Assembly: GCF_003334385.1 (NCBI RefSeq)
Contig: NZ_QOWN01000062.1
Strand: one strand, 5' to 3'
Length of the DNA stretch: 17,976 nucleotides
Source: Escherichia coli
Lineage (GTDB): Bacteria; Pseudomonadota; Gammaproteobacteria; Enterobacterales; Enterobacteriaceae
Shown here piece by piece: positions 3,874 to 11,192 of the stretch (positions are counted from its first letter, which is position 1; the number at the start of each line of letters is the position of its first letter). The position numbers and the translations under genes were made by a program. Below the pieces are notes generated by a model. The model was not told the DNA's origin, ran no database searches, and saw nothing but the letters and a program-made list of their open reading frames with translations.

Positions 3874-4819
3874 ACGCCCACTGGTTATAAACACGCAGCT
3901 GGCAATGAAAATTGGCTTAAACGAAGCCATTGTTTTGCAACAACTGCACTACTGGTTGAGAGATACCAACTCCGGCATGGAATGTGATGGTGTTCGCTGG
4001 ATTTATAACACAACGGAACAATGGCTGGAACAGTTCCCATTCTGGTCAGAGTCAACGTTAAAGCGCGCGTTTGCAAGTCTGAAAACGCTGGGGCTTTTGC
4101 GTTGTGAAAAGCTCAATAAATCAAAGCGCGATATGACCAATTTCTACACGATCAACTATGGGTGCGAGCTTTTAGATGGTGGCAAATTGAGCGAATCCAT
4201 CGGTTCAAAATGCGCCGCTCCATCAGGTCAAAATGACACGATGGAAGAGGTCAAAATGAAACGCTCCATTGGTTCAAAACGACCCAATGTCATCGGGTCA
4301 AAATGGCCTGATGATCTTACAGAGAATACAACAGAGATTACTACAGAGAATAAAAACACTTTTCGTCCGGAAGCTTCGCAACCGGACCCGCAGACGACTG
4401 AACAGGATTTTTTAACCCGGAACTCCGACGCGGTTGTGTTTAGTGCGAAAAAACGCCAGTGGGGTAGCAGGGAGGATTTGGCGTGTGCGCAGTGGATCTG
4501 GGGGCGGATCGTGGGTCTCTACGAACAGGCAGCCAGTGATGATGGCGAGATCATGCGACCAAAAGAGCCTAACTGGACTGCCTGGGCCAATGACGTGCGC
4601 ACAATGCGGATGCTGGATGGCAGAAGCCACAGACAAATTTGCGAAATGTTTGGTCGGGTTCAGCGAGATCCATTCTGGGTAAAAAACATCATGAGCCCGT
4701 CAAAGCTCCGCGAAAAATGGGACGAACTGGTCATCCGCCTGGGACGTTCACCTGTACAGCGTTGTGTTAATCATATTTCTGAACCGGATACAGAAATTCC
4801 GCCTGGTTTCAGAGGATAA
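3854..4819 (+). CDS. Phage replication initiator / replisome-organizer protein (lambda O-like role), 321 aa from the ATG at 3854
   Basis: Track ORF 3800..4819; preferred start at 3854 (MSLLFAERPLVINTQLAMKIGLNEAIVLQQLHYWL, an HTH-like N-terminus). The gene contains five iteron repeats at 4196-4305, as ori-lambda lies inside O. Confidence 0.7.
   Translation: MSLLFAERPLVINTQLAMKIGLNEAIVLQQLHYWLRDTNSGMECDGVRWIYNTTEQWLEQFPFWSESTLKRAFASLKTLGLLRCEKLNKSKRDMTNFYTINYGCELLDGGKLSESIGSKCAAPSGQNDTMEEVKMKRSIGSKRPNVIGSKWPDDLTENTTEITTENKNTFRPEASQPDPQTTEQDFLTRNSDAVVFSAKKRQWGSREDLACAQWIWGRIVGLYEQAASDDGEIMRPKEPNWTAWANDVRTMRMLDGRSHRQICEMFGRVQRDPFWVKNIMSPSKLREKWDELVIRLGRSPVQRCVNHISEPDTEIPPGFRG
4196..4305 (+). repeat. 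Five direct iterons (core GGT(T)CAAAA(T/C)G) at 22-25 bp spacing inside the replication gene; candidate replication origin
   Basis: Core starts at 4202, 4226, 4249, 4271 and 4296, with flanks TCCATCGGTTCAAAATG, TCCATCAGGTCAAAATG, GAGGTCAAAATG, TCCATTGGTTCAAAACG and GTCATCGGGTCAAAATG. Followed at 4320-4356 by three ACAGAGA(A/T)TA repeats in an A-rich stretch. Confidence 0.6.
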
Positions 4820-4859
4820 GTGTTGATTTCAGGTCATGAGGTAATTTTAAGGGGGACTT

Positions 4860-5282
4860 GTGGCAAAAGTTTTTACACAAGAAGAGCGGGAAAAAATTAA
4901 ATGGCAGGTGGTGGAACTCGTGCGCCAGAGCGGCCGTGAGACGTTACGGCAACTGGAAGCTAAAACAGGTGCGACTAGATATCTGATGAGCGTTCTTGCC
5001 AGAGAGCTGGTAGCCAGTGGCGATGTATACAACTCCGGCTACGGGTTATTCCCCTCTGAACAGGCGCGTAAGGACTGGCAAAACGCCCGCAAAAAACTCT
5101 CGAGGGCAAAGGTGAAGAAACCTGCTTTGGTTGATCCGGACCTTATCTGGTCATCACCTGACGGAGAAATACGTCGCTACGACAGTCGCCTAAACATAAT
5201 CTGTCGCGAGTGCCGGAAGAGCGAAGTTATGCAGCGCATACTGGCTTTCTATCAGGGTAATTTTCAGGACGTGGCGCAGTGA
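4860..5282 (+). CDS. Hypothetical 140-aa protein (GTG start), downstream of the replication initiator
   Basis: Track ORF preceded by AAGGGGGA Shine-Dalgarno. Its stop overlaps the GTG start of the following methyltransferase ORF (GTGA). No recognisable motif. Confidence 0.5.
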   Translation: MAKVFTQEEREKIKWQVVELVRQSGRETLRQLEAKTGATRYLMSVLARELVASGDVYNSGYGLFPSEQARKDWQNARKKLSRAKVKKPALVDPDLIWSSPDGEIRRYDSRLNIICRECRKSEVMQRILAFYQGNFQDVAQ

Positions 5283-5725
5283 GTGCACCGGCAACCATTC
5301 TTGATATGTGCTGTGGCAGCCGCATGTTCTGGTTCGATAAGTCTGACGAACGGGCGATATTCAGCGATATCAGAAAAGAAGGATACACATTACGCAATGG
5401 GAGACGCTTGATTATCAGCCCTGACATTATCGCAGATTTTCGTGCATTATCATTTGCAGACGCATCTTTTTCGATGGTTGTATTAGACCCTCCGCATCTT
5501 GAGAGTGTTGGTGATAACGCCTGGATGGGAAAGAAATATGGACGGCTGAATAAAGATGCCTGGCGTGATGATTCGCGACAGAGATTTAAAGAAGCCTTTC
5601 GGGTGTTGAGGCCGCACGGCGTTCTGATTTTTTAATGGAATGAAACGCAAATACCGGTAAGCCAGATTCTGGCACTGACAGACAGAAAACCTGTTATCTG
5701 TCAACGAACAGGGAAAAAACGATAA
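5279..5725 (+). pseudogene. DNA amino-methyltransferase (motif I DMCCGS, motif IV DPPH) interrupted by an in-frame TAA at 5633-5635
   Basis: Track ORF 5279..5635 carries VVLDPPHLE, the D-P-P-[YFWH] catalytic motif of N6A/N4C methyltransferases, and a SAM-binding-like ILDMCCGS. The same frame continues after the TAA for 29 codons (WNETQIPVSQILALTDRKPVICQRTGKKR) to a TAA at 5723-5725. Confidence 0.5.
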
Positions 5726-5897
5726 AACCCACTGGATTATTTTTATGAAAGAGGCATCCAGTGAGTAGATTCGTAAGGCTACAGATACGTATATCTGAAT
5801 AATTAAATTCAGTTCTGTAAATAAAATTTAATCCTTAACCGGATGGATTTCTGCACCCTCAGAACATCAGGAGGCAGCCCGAAAGGGCGGTAGTGAA

Positions 5898-6080
5898 ATG
5901 CGAAAGTTCAAAATTATTATTGAAACGGGAATAGCTGGTGGAGATTTTGAGGATGTATTCGAAGTGGACGATGACGCAACACCTGAGGAAATTCATGACG
6001 GAGCATAAGAAATTTTCTTTAACTACTGCAATTACTCATACCACGAAATAAAAGACGATGAGGAAGAACAAAGTGGCTGA
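5898..6080 (+). pseudogene. Small acidic ORF (36 codons) with an in-frame TAA at 6006-6008 and a 23-codon in-frame continuation
   Basis: MRKFKIIIETGIAGGDFEDVFEVDDDATPEEIHDGA, stop, then EIFFNYCNYSYHEIKDDEEEQSG in the same frame. Manual translation. Confidence 0.3.
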
Positions 6081-6787: not shown

Positions 6788-6967
6788 ATGAAAAACGCAT
6801 TGCAGTTTTTGTTTGTTGCGTTCTGGTTGTTCGCATCATGTATGCCCATCATCTTCACAGCAAGGTATATGGAAAAAGTTGATGTTTTGATATTAATATT
6901 TGGATATATAAATGCCCTTTTTTTAGGGGTGTTCATGGCGGTCATGTGCATTGAATACTGGCGGTAA
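6788..6967 (+). CDS. Small hydrophobic protein, 59 aa, two predicted transmembrane segments
   Basis: ATG at 6788 with AGGAGG at 6778-6783. MKNALQFLFVAFWLFASCMPIIFTARYMEKVDVLILIFGYINALFLGVFMAVMCIEYWR. No antisense gene explains it. Confidence 0.45.
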   Translation: MKNALQFLFVAFWLFASCMPIIFTARYMEKVDVLILIFGYINALFLGVFMAVMCIEYWR

Positions 6968-7301
6968 ATACAGCGAACTCCATTGGTTTAGTTGGATATT
7001 TACTGTGCTGGACAAAAACGGTTTGCGGGGAAATCTTAGTTAAGTAGAATGACTGCGGGTGCTTGAGGCTATCTGCCTCGGGCATGGACACCAACGGCAG
7101 ATAGAGAAAAGCCCCAGTTAACATTACGCGTCCTGCAAGACGCTTAACATTAATCTGAGGCCAATTTCATGCTAGACACATGTAGGTTAGCCTCTTACGT
7201 GCCGAAAGGCACGGAGAAGCAGGCTATTGTTAACACCAAGCTGTAATGTCCCCTTTGAACCATTCTAAAATGTCCCCAGACAATTCTCTGGGGGATTTTT
7301 C

Positions 7302-8615
7302 ATGATCAAAGAGACTGTTACGATGAGTCATAAGGAACTCCACCGACTTCAGATTATTCAGGAACAAGCTGCGGCACGCATTGGCATTTCTATTCGGCAG
7401 GTTAAACGTCTGGTGCAACGGTATAGAAATGAAGGGCCTTCTGGTCTGGTTTCCCACCGACGTGGAAAGCGTCCTAATAATTCCTTTTCTACTGAATTCA
7501 GAGCAACAGTAATTTCACTCCTCAAAGGCCGTTACGCTGATTTTGGACCTACGTTTGCGTGCGAAAAATTGCGCGAGATACACGGTTTATCTTTATCCGT
7601 TGAAACTCTCAGAAAGTGGATGATAGAAGAGGGGTTATGGCGTGAACGCCGTCGTAAAATTGCCCGTATATATCAACGCCGCATGCGACGACCATCTTAC
7701 GGTGAACTGATCCAGATTGATGGCTCACCTCATGACTGGTTTGAAAATCGAGGCCCCAGATGTACACTGATCGTTTTCATTGATGATGCCACCAGTGCGT
7801 TGATGGCGTTGCGTTTTGTGCCTGCTGAAACAACCCGGGCTTACATGGAAACCCTCCGGGGTTACCTTAATGATCATGGCGTACCGCTCGCTCTCTACTC
7901 TGATAGACACAGTATATTCAGGGTAAATAACCCAGAGCGGGAAGGTGAGCTGACCCAGTTCACTCGTGCGATAAAGACACTGGGCATCGAGCCAATCCAT
8001 GCCAACAGCCCGCAGGCAAAAGGGCGGGTAGAGCGCGCCAATCAGACACTACAGGACAGGCTGGTCAAAGAAATGCGGCTTCAGAATATCAGTGATATTG
8101 AAACAGCAAATGCATGGTTGCCGACCTTTATTGAAGCCTATAACAACCGGTTCGCTACGTCGCCTCGTACTACTGATAATGCTCATCTTGATGTGCACCA
8201 TTCTGAAGAGGAACTGGGTTATATCTTCAGCCTACAGGCGAAGCGCGTTCTGTCTAAAAATCTCACTTTCCAGTACAAAAGCAGTGCGTTTCAGGTACGC
8301 AGTGAGGGCCGGGGATATCGACTTAGGCATTCGGTTGTTACTGTATGCGAGAACTTTGACGGTGAAATTAACGTTCTGTATGACGGGAAAGCGCTGGGCT
8401 GGGAAAAGTATGTTGATGGCCCGGAGCCTATACCACTGGATGATGAAAAGAGTGTCCATGAACGAGTGGATAATGCCCGTATTGATTTACGCTCAAAATA
8501 CTATGTTAAACCTAAAGCTGACCATCCCTGGCTTACGCGCCGAACGCAAAGTCATCAGCAAGTTAAGCCCCCGAAGTTACCTAAAAAGAAGCCTGATCCC
8601 GATAAAAAAGATTGA
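7302..8615 (+). CDS. IS-element DDE transposase (integrase-core/rve type with N-terminal HTH), 437 aa; family uncertain (IS481-like or ISNCY-like)
   Basis: Track ORF with HTH-like N-terminus (IGISIRQVKRLVQRY) and candidate DDE residues in IQIDGSPHDW, IVFIDDATSA and GRVERANQTLQD. Ends of the element could not be defined. Confidence 0.8.
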   Translation: MIKETVTMSHKELHRLQIIQEQAAARIGISIRQVKRLVQRYRNEGPSGLVSHRRGKRPNNSFSTEFRATVISLLKGRYADFGPTFACEKLREIHGLSLSVETLRKWMIEEGLWRERRRKIARIYQRRMRRPSYGELIQIDGSPHDWFENRGPRCTLIVFIDDATSALMALRFVPAETTRAYMETLRGYLNDHGVPLALYSDRHSIFRVNNPEREGELTQFTRAIKTLGIEPIHANSPQAKGRVERANQTLQDRLVKEMRLQNISDIETANAWLPTFIEAYNNRFATSPRTTDNAHLDVHHSEEELGYIFSLQAKRVLSKNLTFQYKSSAFQVRSEGRGYRLRHSVVTVCENFDGEINVLYDGKALGWEKYVDGPEPIPLDDEKSVHERVDNARIDLRSKYYVKPKADHPWLTRRTQSHQQVKPPKLPKKKPDPDKKD

Positions 8616-9018
8616 AACCAAGATCGATTCGGTTGAGTGCATATCCATTCATAGGGTAGATTCTTAAGTCGCGTTTCTGGTGTTCATTTTCGGGTGGTTT
8701 GTTACTTGTTTTACCGGGGATATGCCAGAAACGCGCTGAGTCAGTCTGGGCGGTGCGCGTAATGAGGCGTTATGGTAAATAGCCTATGCTAATGTCCGCT
8801 AAGAGCAAGAAGCGGAAGTTGGCAGTTTTGTGGACTGTCCCCACAAAAGTGACTACAGAAATAGTTGCAATTCATAATTGATCATGGGTTGTCAGTTAAA
8901 CTCGTGGCGATTTAAATAGACTAATTGGGAGTGCGTCCATTACTTATATCTTGTAATGTTAACTATCAGAAATGATACAAAGATAATATGTCTTTAAAGA
9001 AAAGGCTGATGGCGAAAA

Positions 9019-9037
9019 GTGGCCCGATGAGGGCCAC
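9019..9037 (-). terminator. Candidate intrinsic terminator downstream of flxA
   Basis: Hairpin GTGGCCC-GATGA-GGGCCAC just 3' of the flxA stop; on the minus strand it is followed by a short T-rich tract (TTTTCGCC). Confidence 0.35.
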
Positions 9038-9051
9038 AATACGGCTGTCAC

Positions 9052-9384
9052 TTAGACGTAAATATCAATGGTGCCAGCGGTATTTGTATCGTCTTTTTTC
9101 TCTTCTTTTTTATCAGGCTGAACTGTCGCGTCTTCATTCTTTTTCTCTGCCTGCTGCCTTAACAACTGCTCCAGTTGAGCCCAGAGGCTTTCAATTTGCT
9201 TCTGTACCAATGCAGCCATTTCTTTTTTCTGCTGTGTCGTCATCCCCTCTTCCGATGAGATTTTCCCAAGCTTTTCAGTCAGCACCTGAATTTGTCTTGT
9301 GATTTTGGCTATTTCTGATGTTCCTTCCGGGGCGGAGTTGTTTGAAATAACGGTTGAGGTATTTCCCTGAATTGTGACAGACAT
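9052..9384 (-). CDS. flxA: FlxA (110 aa)
   Basis: Track ORF MSVTIQGNTSTVISNNSAPEGTSEIAKITRQIQVLTEKLG... matches FlxA as I recall it. AAGGAG Shine-Dalgarno and a sigma-28 promoter lie upstream. Confidence 0.85.
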   Translation of the reverse strand: MSVTIQGNTSTVISNNSAPEGTSEIAKITRQIQVLTEKLGKISSEEGMTTQQKKEMAALVQKQIESLWAQLEQLLRQQAEKKNEDATVQPDKKEEKKDDTNTAGTIDIYV

Positions 9385-9407
9385 AGATTTCTCCTTTTAA
9401 AAAAGCA

Positions 9408-9434
9408 CTATCGGCATGCACAAAAAAATCTTTA
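9408..9434 (-). promoter_or_regulatory. Sigma-28 (FliA) class promoter for flxA
   Basis: Minus strand reads TAAAGATT - 11 nt - GCCGATAG, against the consensus TAAAGTTT-N11-GCCGATAA, about 25 nt upstream of the flxA start. Confidence 0.6.
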
Positions 9435-9586
9435 ATCGTATTTCTTGTGTCATTAATTGTTTGATGTTCAGATTGTTTTCCTCGCGGGCTGGCGCGCCTC
9501 AGAAAGTAAAGCTTGTTGACAGGGGTAAACGTTCGGCAATAATTTTCTGCCGCATGCGGGTGTTGCATAAAACGTGTTACGTTCCT

Positions 9587-9892
9587 TTATCGACAGGTCA
9601 GGTCACCGCTCACCCGCCGACGAGAAAGCAACACTGACATGCTAAAGCAAAAAATAGATGAATAAGTTGAGTTGTGCATATGTAGCCTGACCGTCACAAA
9701 GTATATGGTGTCTGTACCAGTAAGATGATGGCCGGACTCTTTAAAAACGAGCTGACCTGCACAATACAGGATGGACTTAGCAATGGCTGCTCCTGGCACA
9801 AAGCGGACAGTGATCACCGTTCTTACGACTACTTTCTGACTTCCTTCGTGACTTGCCCTAAGCATGTTGTAGTGCGATACTTGTAATGACAT
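9587..9892 (-). CDS. ORF at the ydfV position (101 codons); coding status uncertain
   Basis: Track ORF MSLQVSHYNMLRASHEG... between flxA and relB; same length as ydfV in K-12 as I recall. No motif support. Confidence 0.2.
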   Translation of the reverse strand: MSLQVSHYNMLRASHEGSQKVVVRTVITVRFVPGAAIAKSILYCAGQLVFKESGHHLTGTDTIYFVTVRLHMHNSTYSSIFCFSMSVLLSRRRVSGDLTCR

Positions 9893-9905
9893 TTGTAATT
9901 ACAAG
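9881..9905 (+). promoter_or_regulatory. relO operator of the relBE promoter
   Basis: TTGTAATGACATTTGTAATTACAAG, with inverted TTGTAAT/ATTACAA repeats, directly upstream of the relB Shine-Dalgarno (GAGGTG) and ATG at 9917. Confidence 0.7.
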
Positions 9906-9916
9906 AGGTGTAAGAC

Positions 9917-10156
9917 ATGGGTAGCATTAACCTGCGTATTGACGATGAACTTAAAGCGCGTTCTTACGCCGCGCTTGAAAAAATGGGTGTAACTCCTTCT
10001 GAAGCGCTTCGTCTCATGCTCGAGTATATCGCTGACAATGAACGCTTGCCGTTCAAACAGACACTCCTGAGTGATGAAGATGCTGAACTTGTGGAGATAG
10101 TGAAAGAACGGCTTCGTAATCCTAAGCCAGTACGTGTGACGCTGGATGAACTCTGA
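9917..10156 (+). CDS. relB: RelB antitoxin (79 aa)
   Basis: MGSINLRIDDELKARSYAALEKMGVTPSEALRLMLEYIADNERLPFKQTLLSDEDAELVEIVKERLRNPKPVRVTLDEL; near-identical to RelB as I recall it. Confidence 0.92.
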   Translation: MGSINLRIDDELKARSYAALEKMGVTPSEALRLMLEYIADNERLPFKQTLLSDEDAELVEIVKERLRNPKPVRVTLDEL

Positions 10157-10443
10157 TGGCGTATTTTCTGGATTTTGACGAGCGGGCACTAAAGGAATGG
10201 CGAAAGCTGGGCTCGACGGTACGTGAACAGTTGAAAAAGAAGCTGGTTGAAGTACTTGAGTCACCCCGGATTGAAGCAAACAAGCTCCGTGGTATGCCTG
10301 ATTGTTACAAGATTAAGCTCCGGTCTTCAGGCTATCGCCTTGTATACCAGGTTATAGACGAGAAAGTTGTCGTTTTCGTGATTTCTGTTGGGAAAAGAGA
10401 ACGCTCGGAAGTATATAGCGAGGCGGTCAAACGCATTCTCTGA
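10156..10443 (+). CDS. relE: RelE mRNA-interferase toxin (95 aa)
   Basis: MAYFLDFDERALKEWRKLGSTVREQLKKKLVEVLESPRIEANKLRGMPDCYKIKLRSSGYRLVYQVIDEKVVVFVISVGKRERSEVYSEAVKRIL. ATG overlaps the relB stop (ATGA). Confidence 0.92.
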   Translation: MAYFLDFDERALKEWRKLGSTVREQLKKKLVEVLESPRIEANKLRGMPDCYKIKLRSSGYRLVYQVIDEKVVVFVISVGKRERSEVYSEAVKRIL

Positions 10444-10514
10444 ACCAAAGCATGACATCTCTGTTTCGCACCGAAGGTGACACTTCTGCTTTGCGTTGAC
10501 AGGAGAAGCAGGCT

Positions 10515-10670
10515 ATGAAGCAGCAAAAGGCGATGTTAATCGCCCTGATCGTCATCTGTTTAACCGTCATAGTGACGGCACTGGTAACGAGGAAAGACCT
10601 CTGCGAGGTACGAATCCGAACCGGCCAGACGGAGGTCGCTGTCTTCACAGCTTACGAACCTGAGGAGTAA
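10515..10670 (+). CDS. hokD: HokD (RelF) Hok-family membrane toxin, 51 aa
   Basis: Manual translation MKQQKAMLIALIVICLTVIVTALVTRKDLCEVRIRTGQTEVAVFTAYEPEE; GGAGAAG Shine-Dalgarno. Under 60 aa, so absent from the ORF track. Confidence 0.9.
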   Translation: MKQQKAMLIALIVICLTVIVTALVTRKDLCEVRIRTGQTEVAVFTAYEPEE

Positions 10671-10735
10671 GAGACCCGGCGGGGGAGAAATCCCTCGCCA
10701 CCTCTGATGTGGCAGGCATCCTCAACGCACCCGCA

Positions 10736-10768
10736 CTTAACCCGCTTCGGCGGGTTTTTGTTTTTATT
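10736..10768 (+). terminator. Intrinsic terminator after relBE-hokD
   Basis: CCCGC-TTCG-GCGGG hairpin followed by TTTTTGTTTTTATTTT. Confidence 0.6.
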
Positions 10769-10886
10769 TTCAACGCGTTTGAAGTTCTGGACGGTGCCGG
10801 AATAGAATCAAAAATACTTAAGTAGCGCGCAGGGATAAGAGGGATGGTCCCTTAAAGGGGAGAGCTAATTATCCGGAAGGATTCTG

Positions 10887-11192
10887 ATGATGAACATCGA
10901 AGAACTGCGTAAAATTTTTTGTGAAGATGGCCTCTATGCTGTGTGCGTTGAAAATGGAAATCTTGTTAGTCATTACCGCATTATGTGTTTGCGAAAGAAT
11001 GGGGCTGCGTTAATTAATTTTGTGGATGCTCGGGTCACGGACGGATTTATCTTGCGCGAAGGTGAGTTTGTCACTTCATTACAGGCATTGAAAGAGATCG
11101 GAATAAAAGCTGGCTTTTCTGCTTTTCTGGTAACAAAGTGCTGGCAGGAAGAAGCATACGCGGAAGCGCAATTGAGGAAGGTGACGAGATAA
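10887..11192 (+). CDS. rem: Rem-like small protein
   Basis: Track ORF MMNIEELRKIFCEDGLYAVCVENGNLVSHYRIMCLRKNGAALINFVDARVTDGFILREGEF... resembles Rem of Qin. The C-terminus may differ in length from K-12. Confidence 0.65.
   Translation: MMNIEELRKIFCEDGLYAVCVENGNLVSHYRIMCLRKNGAALINFVDARVTDGFILREGEFVTSLQALKEIGIKAGFSAFLVTKCWQEEAYAEAQLRKVTR

Follow-up and report, generated by a model that had tools for sequence, protein, structure and literature searches.

The window analyzed here is a 17,976-nucleotide stretch of Escherichia coli DNA (NCBI RefSeq assembly GCF_003334385.1, contig NZ_QOWN01000062.1) in which an inserted block with a transposase open reading frame (ORF) interrupts hokD, a type I toxin gene of a prophage. 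The ORF lies on the plus strand at positions 7302-8615, starts with ATG and encodes a 437-amino-acid protein of the IS1202 family that resembles the transposase of ISEsa1. The initial annotation had called it a clear DDE transposase, and this is borne out by the NCBIfam model NF033594 ('ISNCY family transposase'), which scores 456 bits (cutoff 250), and by the catalytic residues D140, D201 and E244. Lower-scoring NCBIfam matches are to IS481, IS21 and IS3 models. E244 is followed by RANQTLQ, placing a glutamine at the seventh position after the catalytic glutamate; glutamine rather than lysine or arginine at this position is a hallmark of the IS1202 family, whose transposases are of the DDE type and 394-507 amino acids long (Harmer & Hall, PMC10132070). 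Pfam identifies HTH_28 (residues 14-66), HTH_32 and rve_3 in an intact homologue and nothing else of a TnsB/MuA-like architecture, while a sequence search of the PDB with the transposase gave a single marginal match, to a retroviral integrase. Intact homologues have 446 amino acids and are named 'IS1202-like element ISEsa1 family transposase' by RefSeq; counted from its second ATG, this protein has 439 amino acids, the size listed for ISEsa1.

In comparison with the 446-amino-acid plasmid copies, the window ORF carries a 27-bp in-frame deletion near 7358-7364, between TCAGGA repeats, which removes nine residues (ESINRHITQ) within HTH_28, the first helix-turn-helix (HTH) domain; beyond this deletion, one further residue differs from the plasmid protein. 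Because the first HTH is affected, the window copy is probably unable to move by itself, although its ends are intact. The RefSeq annotation of an identical genome, made by PGAP, marks the gene as a pseudogene. The K-12 and RefSeq annotations also place a gene named ydfW at 8466-8615 (plus strand), which covers the C-terminal 49 codons of the transposase ORF in the same reading frame and so is the tail of the transposase and no separate gene.

The initial annotation found no convincing terminal repeats or target-site duplication within 300 bp of the ORF, and our repeat searches agree, as no inverted or direct repeat pair above chance was detected within about 300 bp on either side and the best ungapped match was 14/22. 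The element had been assumed to span about 1.3-1.6 kb. Comparison with other genomes delimits it instead as a block of 3,274 bp at 7228-10501, about twice that length, a discrepancy of the kind that the initial annotation had named as refuting its view, and the ends were missed earlier because the right terminal inverted repeat lies 1.9 kb past the stop codon of the transposase, leaving only the left one within 300 bp. When positions 6900-9100 were searched by megablast against 5,426 complete E. coli genomes, matches were found in 4,715, with most of the region present in only 776. In genomes without the transposase, the matches are to hokD or other hok loci and always end at 7227, and in the RefSeq annotation of these empty loci the hokD coding sequence begins exactly where the left-flank match ends. 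In every copy from five unrelated contexts (this prophage, IncF, IncR and IncI plasmids, and an 89%-identical relative), the alignment starts at TGTTAACACC (7228 in the window), with a different, diverged hok-type leader to its left in each. Alignment to uninterrupted loci, which had been suggested as a check, supplied both the empty site and the duplication. A BLAST search of the whole window against E. coli REL606 (locus L006; the other loci in this study are numbered likewise) aligns 7037-7227 with 1501-1691 and 10501-11126 with 1676-2301, such that the two flanks are adjacent in the empty site with a 16-bp overlap, and three other loci are alike. Since the flanks meet in the empty sites, the element is taken to extend from 7228 to 10501. 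The same right end adjoins differing flanks in L010, L011, L023 and L073.

The block begins with TGTTAAC at 7228 and finishes with GTTGACA at 10501, giving TGT/ACA tips. The left terminal inverted repeat (IRL; 7228-7253, plus strand, TGTTAACACCAAGCTGTAATGTCCCC) is located 49-74 bp upstream of the transposase ATG, and the right terminal inverted repeat (IRR; 10476-10501, minus strand, ending ...GCGTTGACA) reaches 1,886 bp past its stop codon. The reverse complement of the IRR, TGTCAACGCAAAGCAGAAGTGTCACC, is identical to the IRL TGTTAACACCAAGCTGTAATGTCCCC at 16/22 and 22/30 positions. The inner part of each terminal repeat recurs as a second copy in a subterminal position. On the left this is a direct repeat of 7235-7253 at 7259-7277 (plus strand, 79% identity), and on the right it lies at 10451-10469 (minus strand), matching 10476-10494 at 13/19 positions in a hand alignment, a manual count on the printed sequences rather than a tool computation. 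By analogy, these copies are putative second transposase-binding sites. TGT/ACA tips, imperfect terminal repeats and subterminal repeat copies are all described features of the IS1202 family (PMC10132070).

A repeat finder detected an exact 15-nt direct repeat bordering the block, with the left copy at 7213-7227 (GGAGAAGCAGGCTAT) running from the hok Shine-Dalgarno sequence through the AT of the ATG, and the right copy at 10502-10516 matching it exactly and rebuilding the Shine-Dalgarno sequence and ATG of hokD. This 15-mer is single-copy in the empty sites of REL606 and the three other loci. The left junction reads ...GGCACGGAGAAGCAGGCTAT followed by TGTTAAC..., and the right junction ...GCGTTGACA followed by GGAGAAGCAGGCTATGAAGCAG... 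Two other candidate pairs of ends, a perfect 12-mer at 7116-7127 and 8953-8964 and a TGTA...TACA pair at 7245 and 8858, were unsupported by comparison with other copies. A composite transposon was ruled out, as a second transposase or second insertion sequence (IS) is absent. The hok leader was also considered as part of the element and rejected, since the leaders diverge by 8-25% up to the junction whereas copies of the element itself share about 99% identity.

The initial annotation had placed the insertion where the early region meets flxA. That it is an insertion in a prophage stands, but flxA lies within the element and the interrupted gene is hokD. To the left of the block, positions 7057-7227 (plus strand) hold an orphaned hok/sok leader, the regulatory 5' part of the hokD locus severed from its toxin ORF. 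The Rfam model RF01794 'sok' scores 104 bits over its full length at 7057-7228, ending at the junction, and the window sequence from 6581 or 7037 to 7227 is 94-98% identical to intact hokD loci, with all matches stopping at 7227. The hokD toxin ORF itself, annotated as HokD in RefSeq, is found at 10515-10670 (plus strand), 71 bp downstream of relE, and the sequence on this side is collinear with intact hok loci from 10501 on. In the empty sites, the leader with its Sok antisense region and the Hok ORF are contiguous, as in a hok/sok locus. The insertion splits the hokD ATG between T and G, with the transposase oriented in the same direction as hok, and the right copy of the duplication restores GGAG...ATG, creating the gene order relB-relE-hokD ('relBEF') known from K-12.

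In strain K-12, the match to the window starts only at 8431, where the K-12 sequence is joined to ydfX and dicC, and the genes and their order from that point are identical to those of the relBEF operon in the K-12 Qin prophage. The K-12 copy is therefore 5'-truncated, having lost the IRL and most of the transposase gene. What can be added to the relBEF arrangement of K-12 Qin is that, here, the IRR and the duplicated Shine-Dalgarno sequence and AT sit between relE and hokD, and by this comparison the relBE-hokD operon is a junction between a transposon and its target. Co-transcription of hokD with relBE has been described (Gotfredsen & Gerdes 1998, as cited in PMC5120126), and the integration of relBE into hokD has been noted earlier (Ramisetty & Santhosh 2016, as cited in PMC6379469). 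The accessible literature on relBE-hokD names no transposon as the vehicle. Just past hokD, at 10679-10760, the Rfam model for isrK, an Hfq-binding small RNA, gives a sub-threshold match of 25 bits (gathering score 50). Upstream of the hok leader, at about 4057-6024, a frameshifted copy of the IS66-family element ISEc22 (tnpC, tnpB and a small transposase ORF in the RefSeq annotation of the identical genome) interrupts the early region of the prophage.

As the initial annotation had anticipated, the ends of the element decide which flanking sequences are transposon-borne and which belong to the prophage. On the delimitation above, flxA, ydfV, relB and relE are transposon cargo and not prophage genes, and the layout of the element is, in order, IRL, transposase, a cer-like Xer site, a first palindrome (A), the cargo genes flxA and ydfV, a second palindrome (B), relB-relE and IRR. 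The cer-like site (8632-8780, plus strand) comprises an accessory-type region and a core at 8752-8780 (plus strand) that was located by a pattern scan and reads GGTGCGCGTAA-tgaggcg-TTATGGTAAAT; the core is conserved in L010, L011, L012 and L017. In a cer-type site, 11-bp arms for XerC and XerD enclose a center of 6-8 bp, and accessory sequence of about 150-200 bp adjoins the XerC arm. The sequence from 8632 or 8670 to 8780 or 8784 is 73-78% identical to unannotated regions of thousands of small mobilizable plasmids, which we take to be cer multimer-resolution sites, and the small-plasmid matches to the 120-150 bp upstream of the core end at the XerD arm. We read 8632-8780 as a putative cer-type multimer-resolution site. 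An Xer-like site is thus internal to this transposon; in other members of its family, Xer sites serve as the target.

The two palindromes mark the inner limits of the conserved arms and share the 26-bp pattern nGTCCGCT-N10-AGCGGACn, with spacers AAGAGCRAGA in A and YCTGGCACAR in B. Site A (8793-8818; TGTCCGCT-N10-AGCGGAAG) forms the inner end of the left arm, is conserved in L002, L011, L012, L017 and L022, and has diverged in L074; homology among elements with different cargo stops at 8820. Site B (9784-9809), with a degenerate left arm TGGCTGCT, spacer CCTGGCACAA and right arm AGCGGACA, forms the inner end of the right arm, where homology begins at 9782-9790 in L011, L021, L023, L073 and L074. 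The motif of site B also occurs just inside the toxin-antitoxin (TA) module of two Citrobacter relatives (L015 and L016). Further copies of the palindrome are found in L011 (4108-4133), L017 (11525-11550 and 12113-12138), L015 (18454-18479) and L016 (12922-12947 and 18913-18938), and in Escherichia sp. ESNIH1 the palindromes bracket about 590 bp and are positioned before the Xer site. With arms similar to the element tips (TGTC...GACA), these palindromes may serve the transposase as additional binding sites, act as alternative ends of the element or allow cargo to be exchanged by recombination.

Between the arms lies the variable cargo (8821-9783), made up of flxA (9052-9384, minus strand) and most of ydfV (9587-9892, minus strand), which crosses into the conserved right arm. 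This segment is swapped for 10.5 kb of ncr/chr genes in L011 and for other ORFs in plasmid pSC138. Only the first 20 or so residues of ydfV recur, in the relatives L021 and L023, and because it straddles the junction between variable cargo and conserved right arm, ydfV may be a chimeric ORF rather than a gene. The type II antitoxin-toxin pair relB (9917-10156) and relE (10156-10443), both on the plus strand and identified as ORFs and in the RefSeq annotation, adjoins the IRR. This position of relBE and the Xer core are present in all complete close relatives, making relBE a constant part of the right arm. No backbone lacking cargo, in which 8820 would be joined directly to 9790, was found among the 876 plasmid records that contain an arm.

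Both a 3,274-bp form and a 3,301-3,302-bp form of the element occur at the same hokD site in other genomes, and its arms are also found at other sites. A 3,301-bp unit, 99.8% identical, is located in pndA beside trbA on the Salmonella IncI plasmid pSA20064858.1, with its own duplication TGGAGGGGCTATGAT and the start codon again split as AT/G. On a Phytobacter IncF plasmid, the two arms (left to 8820, right from 9790) surround 10.5 kb with ncrABCY, chrBA and other genes; this 12,843-bp element is inserted in an R1-type hok downstream of psiA, with the duplication GGAGAAGTCAGCTAT. On metagenome contigs, further hok genes are occupied by elements 4,237 and 4,600 bp long, whose duplications measure 16 bp. 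More distant relatives in Citrobacter, with 80-82% identical transposases and lengths of 9.7 and 10.1 kb, have perfect 16-bp duplications and, in the place of relBE, a different apparent TA pair adjoining the IRR, which we read as a DUF1778-like antitoxin with a GNAT-type toxin; the NCBIfam acetyltransferase matches of the toxin are sub-threshold (at most 19 bits, with cutoffs of at least 86), and the antitoxin has no NCBIfam match. The 9.7-kb Citrobacter element (L015; 9776-9926 and 19611-19710) is inserted on the ATG of a 30-amino-acid hydrophobic ORF (MAFKEALLLAVVTSVVGPILVALIRHFFRF). As this locus scores 52.4 bits with the Rfam model rdlD (gathering score 50), a second type I toxin family (ldr/rdl-type) appears to have been entered at its start codon. 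Eight complete elements show duplications of 15-16 bp. The reading of the ORF as a mobile-element transposase rather than a domesticated integrase is upheld by the terminal repeats, the 15-bp duplication in the window and the copies elsewhere with duplications of their own.

Some arms are found outside complete elements. In Leclercia adecarboxylata (L021, 9286-10001), a right arm with relBE and IRR adjoins about codon 114 of the transposase gene of another copy, which by its sequence is a nested or self-targeted insertion. Plasmids pSC138 (S. Choleraesuis) and pCK41 (Edwardsiella tarda) and a Serratia plasmid share a single non-hok site for the relBE-IRR right arm (L073, L074 and L075, at about 9687-9712). 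The left arms of these three copies are truncated by IS26 or IS30, and remnants of the element are therefore widespread in clinical plasmids.

To assess the target preference, left flanks from the genome, viral and metagenome scans were combined; the 69 flanks obtained represent 34 distinct contexts. In 16 of these, the alignment to a reference hok or pnd leader runs to within roughly two bases of the junction. The duplications at hok sites always begin at the Shine-Dalgarno GGAG and end at AT or ATG, and the Rfam sok model stops exactly at the IRL in three loci. Several contexts are head-to-tail junctions consisting of IRR, 15 bp and IRL (for example, L101 11714-11730 and L112 2736-2752), and at position 965 of L113, on the same contig as L112, the identical 15-mer stands behind a hok leader. 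With one hok-type 15-bp duplication between tandem elements, these arrays therefore suggest that a rebuilt target was used again. A short hairpin immediately before the duplication in hok, pnd and ldr-type sites is a lead only. In L078, L086, L100, L119 and L120, the hok leader is identical up to GGAG and is then followed by TTGTATGGGTCC (or ATGTATGGGTCC) before the IRL; these flanks, with the usual spacer and ATG replaced, may represent a different hok variant or an unusual junction. Our full-text literature searches found no link between hok and IS1202, and no link of the present kind between ISEsa1 and toxin-antitoxin systems.

Instead of transposing directly, the block could have entered this prophage by recombination, from a plasmid or a different prophage that already carried the element, for instance through homology in the hok leader. 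Such exchange does occur between hok loci, as L062 and L090 have a left flank with a pnd-type or hokD-type leader and a right flank from a different hok, a mismatch that indicates homologous recombination between element copies. The identical unit is present on plasmids, and acquisition of relBE from plasmids has been proposed (Ramisetty & Santhosh 2016, as cited in PMC6379469). In the window, however, the two 15-mers are identical to each other and to the single-copy hok sequence of this prophage type, and the leader up to the junction is of the hokD type found in the empty lambdoid sites (94-98% identity), which together are the signature of direct insertion. That the leaders at different sites are diverged right up to the junction likewise argues for repeated insertion over a single junction spread by recombination. 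We therefore regard delivery by recombination as unlikely for this copy, and the boundaries and nature of the element would be unchanged even so.

In transposase and end structure, the element belongs to the IS1202 family by these comparisons, yet it departs from the catalogued ISEsa1 and the norm of the family in size, cargo architecture and target. Duplications in this family come in size classes of 3-6, 15-18 and 24-29 bp, and the 15-bp duplication found here falls within them. Harmer and Hall (PMC10132070) list ISEsa1 as 1,609 bp with 15/22 repeats and a 439-amino-acid transposase, report that no duplication was detected on examining multiple examples, and group it with ISCARN112 in a separate, small third branch of the transposase tree that lacks duplications. 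The present elements share with ISEsa1 the transposase family name and a left arm of about 1.6 kb; in contrast to the catalogued ISEsa1, their mobile units are 3.3-12.8 kb, end beyond relBE and make 15-16-bp duplications.

It follows from that listing that a compact ISEsa1 of about 1.6 kb, ending near 8809-8820 without a duplication, has to be weighed, with flxA, ydfV and relBE as ordinary neighboring prophage genes. The segment common to all copies regardless of cargo is indeed 7228-8820, or 1,620 bp with the missing 27 bp restored. Against this, no partner for the IRL is present near 8809-8820 and 7228-8820 is not flanked by a duplication; position 8820, where plasmid copies stop matching, was rejected as the right end for the same want of an IRL-like sequence and a duplication. 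The 1,609-bp ISfinder length would place the right end at about 8809, inside palindrome A, and the 15/22 repeat could not be reproduced. Empty sites miss the entire 7228-10501 block and not merely its first 1.6 kb, and the 3.3-kb unit is also present in the IncI plasmid with a duplication of its own. A compact element is thus very improbable.

That the block is a decayed or domesticated relic, with an ORF that is no longer a transposase and a fixed place in the cryptic Qin prophage, has next to no probability: the deletion in the first HTH, the pseudogene call with ydfW split off, the loss of the IRL and most of the gene in K-12 and the 776 of 5,426 complete genomes holding most of 6900-9100 would fit it, but apart from the deletion the ORF is intact and differs from an active-looking plasmid copy by a single substitution, both ends and the duplication are intact, intact 3,301-3,302-bp versions occupy the same site in other genomes, and a relic would describe the present state of the window copy, not another origin.

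The long duplication invites comparison with other groups of the family. With a true right end beyond relBE, elements of the ISEsa1 type would make 15-16-bp duplications and fall in the size class of ISTde1. Members of the ISTde1 subgroup (15-18-bp duplications) likewise have TGT...ACA ends, imperfect repeats and an unusually long duplication; unlike the present element, they are compact IS without cargo and with no reported target preference. The ISAjo2/ISAba32 group of the same family shares with the present element orientation-specific insertion at preferred sites and a transposase as the sole mobility gene. In contrast, its members duplicate 5 bp and enter dif/pdif Xer sites at a distance of 5 bp from the XerC side, while the present element makes 15-16-bp duplications and prefers hok-type starts, and the only Xer-like core in the region (8752-8780) is internal. 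Like Tn7 with its TnsB, the element combines TGT/ACA tips, multiple internal, putatively transposase-binding repeats, cargo and a preferred site. It differs from Tn7 in having no TnsA, TnsC, TnsD or TnsE, its named ORFs being the transposase, flxA, ydfV, relB and relE, and in its duplication of 15-16 bp, that of Tn7 being 5 bp. Harmer and Hall modelled the IS1202-family transposase on TnsB (PMC10132070).

Taken together, we consider it highly probable that the ORF at 7302-8615 is the transposase of a 3,274-bp, ISEsa1-like cargo transposon of the IS1202 family, located at 7228-10501 and inserted in hokD. Several points weigh against this interpretation or narrow it. The support is wholly comparative. 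In L027, a complete copy, the flanking repeat is just 6 bp long. Thirteen of the 34 left-flank contexts are unrelated to hok, so the preference is not absolute, and given copies such as L062 and L090, some of the hok contexts may go back to a single event that recombination then spread. Most left flanks have an A immediately before the duplicated sequence, which would allow a 16-bp duplication with an element ending in ...GAC; in the window, position 7212 is C. The functions suggested for the Xer site and the two palindromes are putative. Finally, the ISfinder entry for ISEsa1 probably covers the left arm only, a judgment made from the lengths.

If the element is such a transposon, its DDE transposase would bind the terminal and subterminal repeats and cut with a stagger of 15-16 bp, with the region of hairpin, GGAG and ATG in type I toxin genes as its preferred target. 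The duplication would rebuild this target at the right end and leave the site usable again, which would explain the tandem elements. The rebuilt site would also put hok with its ribosome-binding site straight after relBE, generating the relBE-hokD operon, and the Xer site and relBE would stabilize the carrier plasmid or prophage. Extending this to the relatives, we lean toward a broader view in which ISEsa1-type elements form a distinct class of cargo transposon, composed of a transposase, a cer-like Xer site, exchangeable cargo between two 26-bp palindromes and a TA module at the right end. Such elements would home to the translation starts of type I toxins (hok, pnd and ldr/rdl-type) on plasmids and prophages, stack in tandem through the rebuilt target and join the TA operon they carry to the toxin gene already in place, with the K-12 relBE-hokD operon as one such junction and the 'ISEsa1 without target duplication' as a mis-delimited left arm.

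These results resolve which genes are prophage-derived and which are transposon-borne in the much-studied Qin prophage region, where flxA, ydfV and relBE, the last being the founder of a major toxin-antitoxin family, came in as passengers of an IS1202-family transposon. They offer a possible explanation for the reported want of target duplications in ISEsa1, and the IS1202 family would gain a second target preference, type I toxin start codons, in addition to dif/pdif. Elements with these arms carry blocks of nickel and chromate resistance genes between clinical plasmids of Klebsiella, Enterobacter and Phytobacter, and recognizing their true ends should therefore improve the annotation of plasmid resistance regions. 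A transposon with plasmid-stabilizing functions that lands in a rival addiction module also provides a testable idea of competition between selfish elements.

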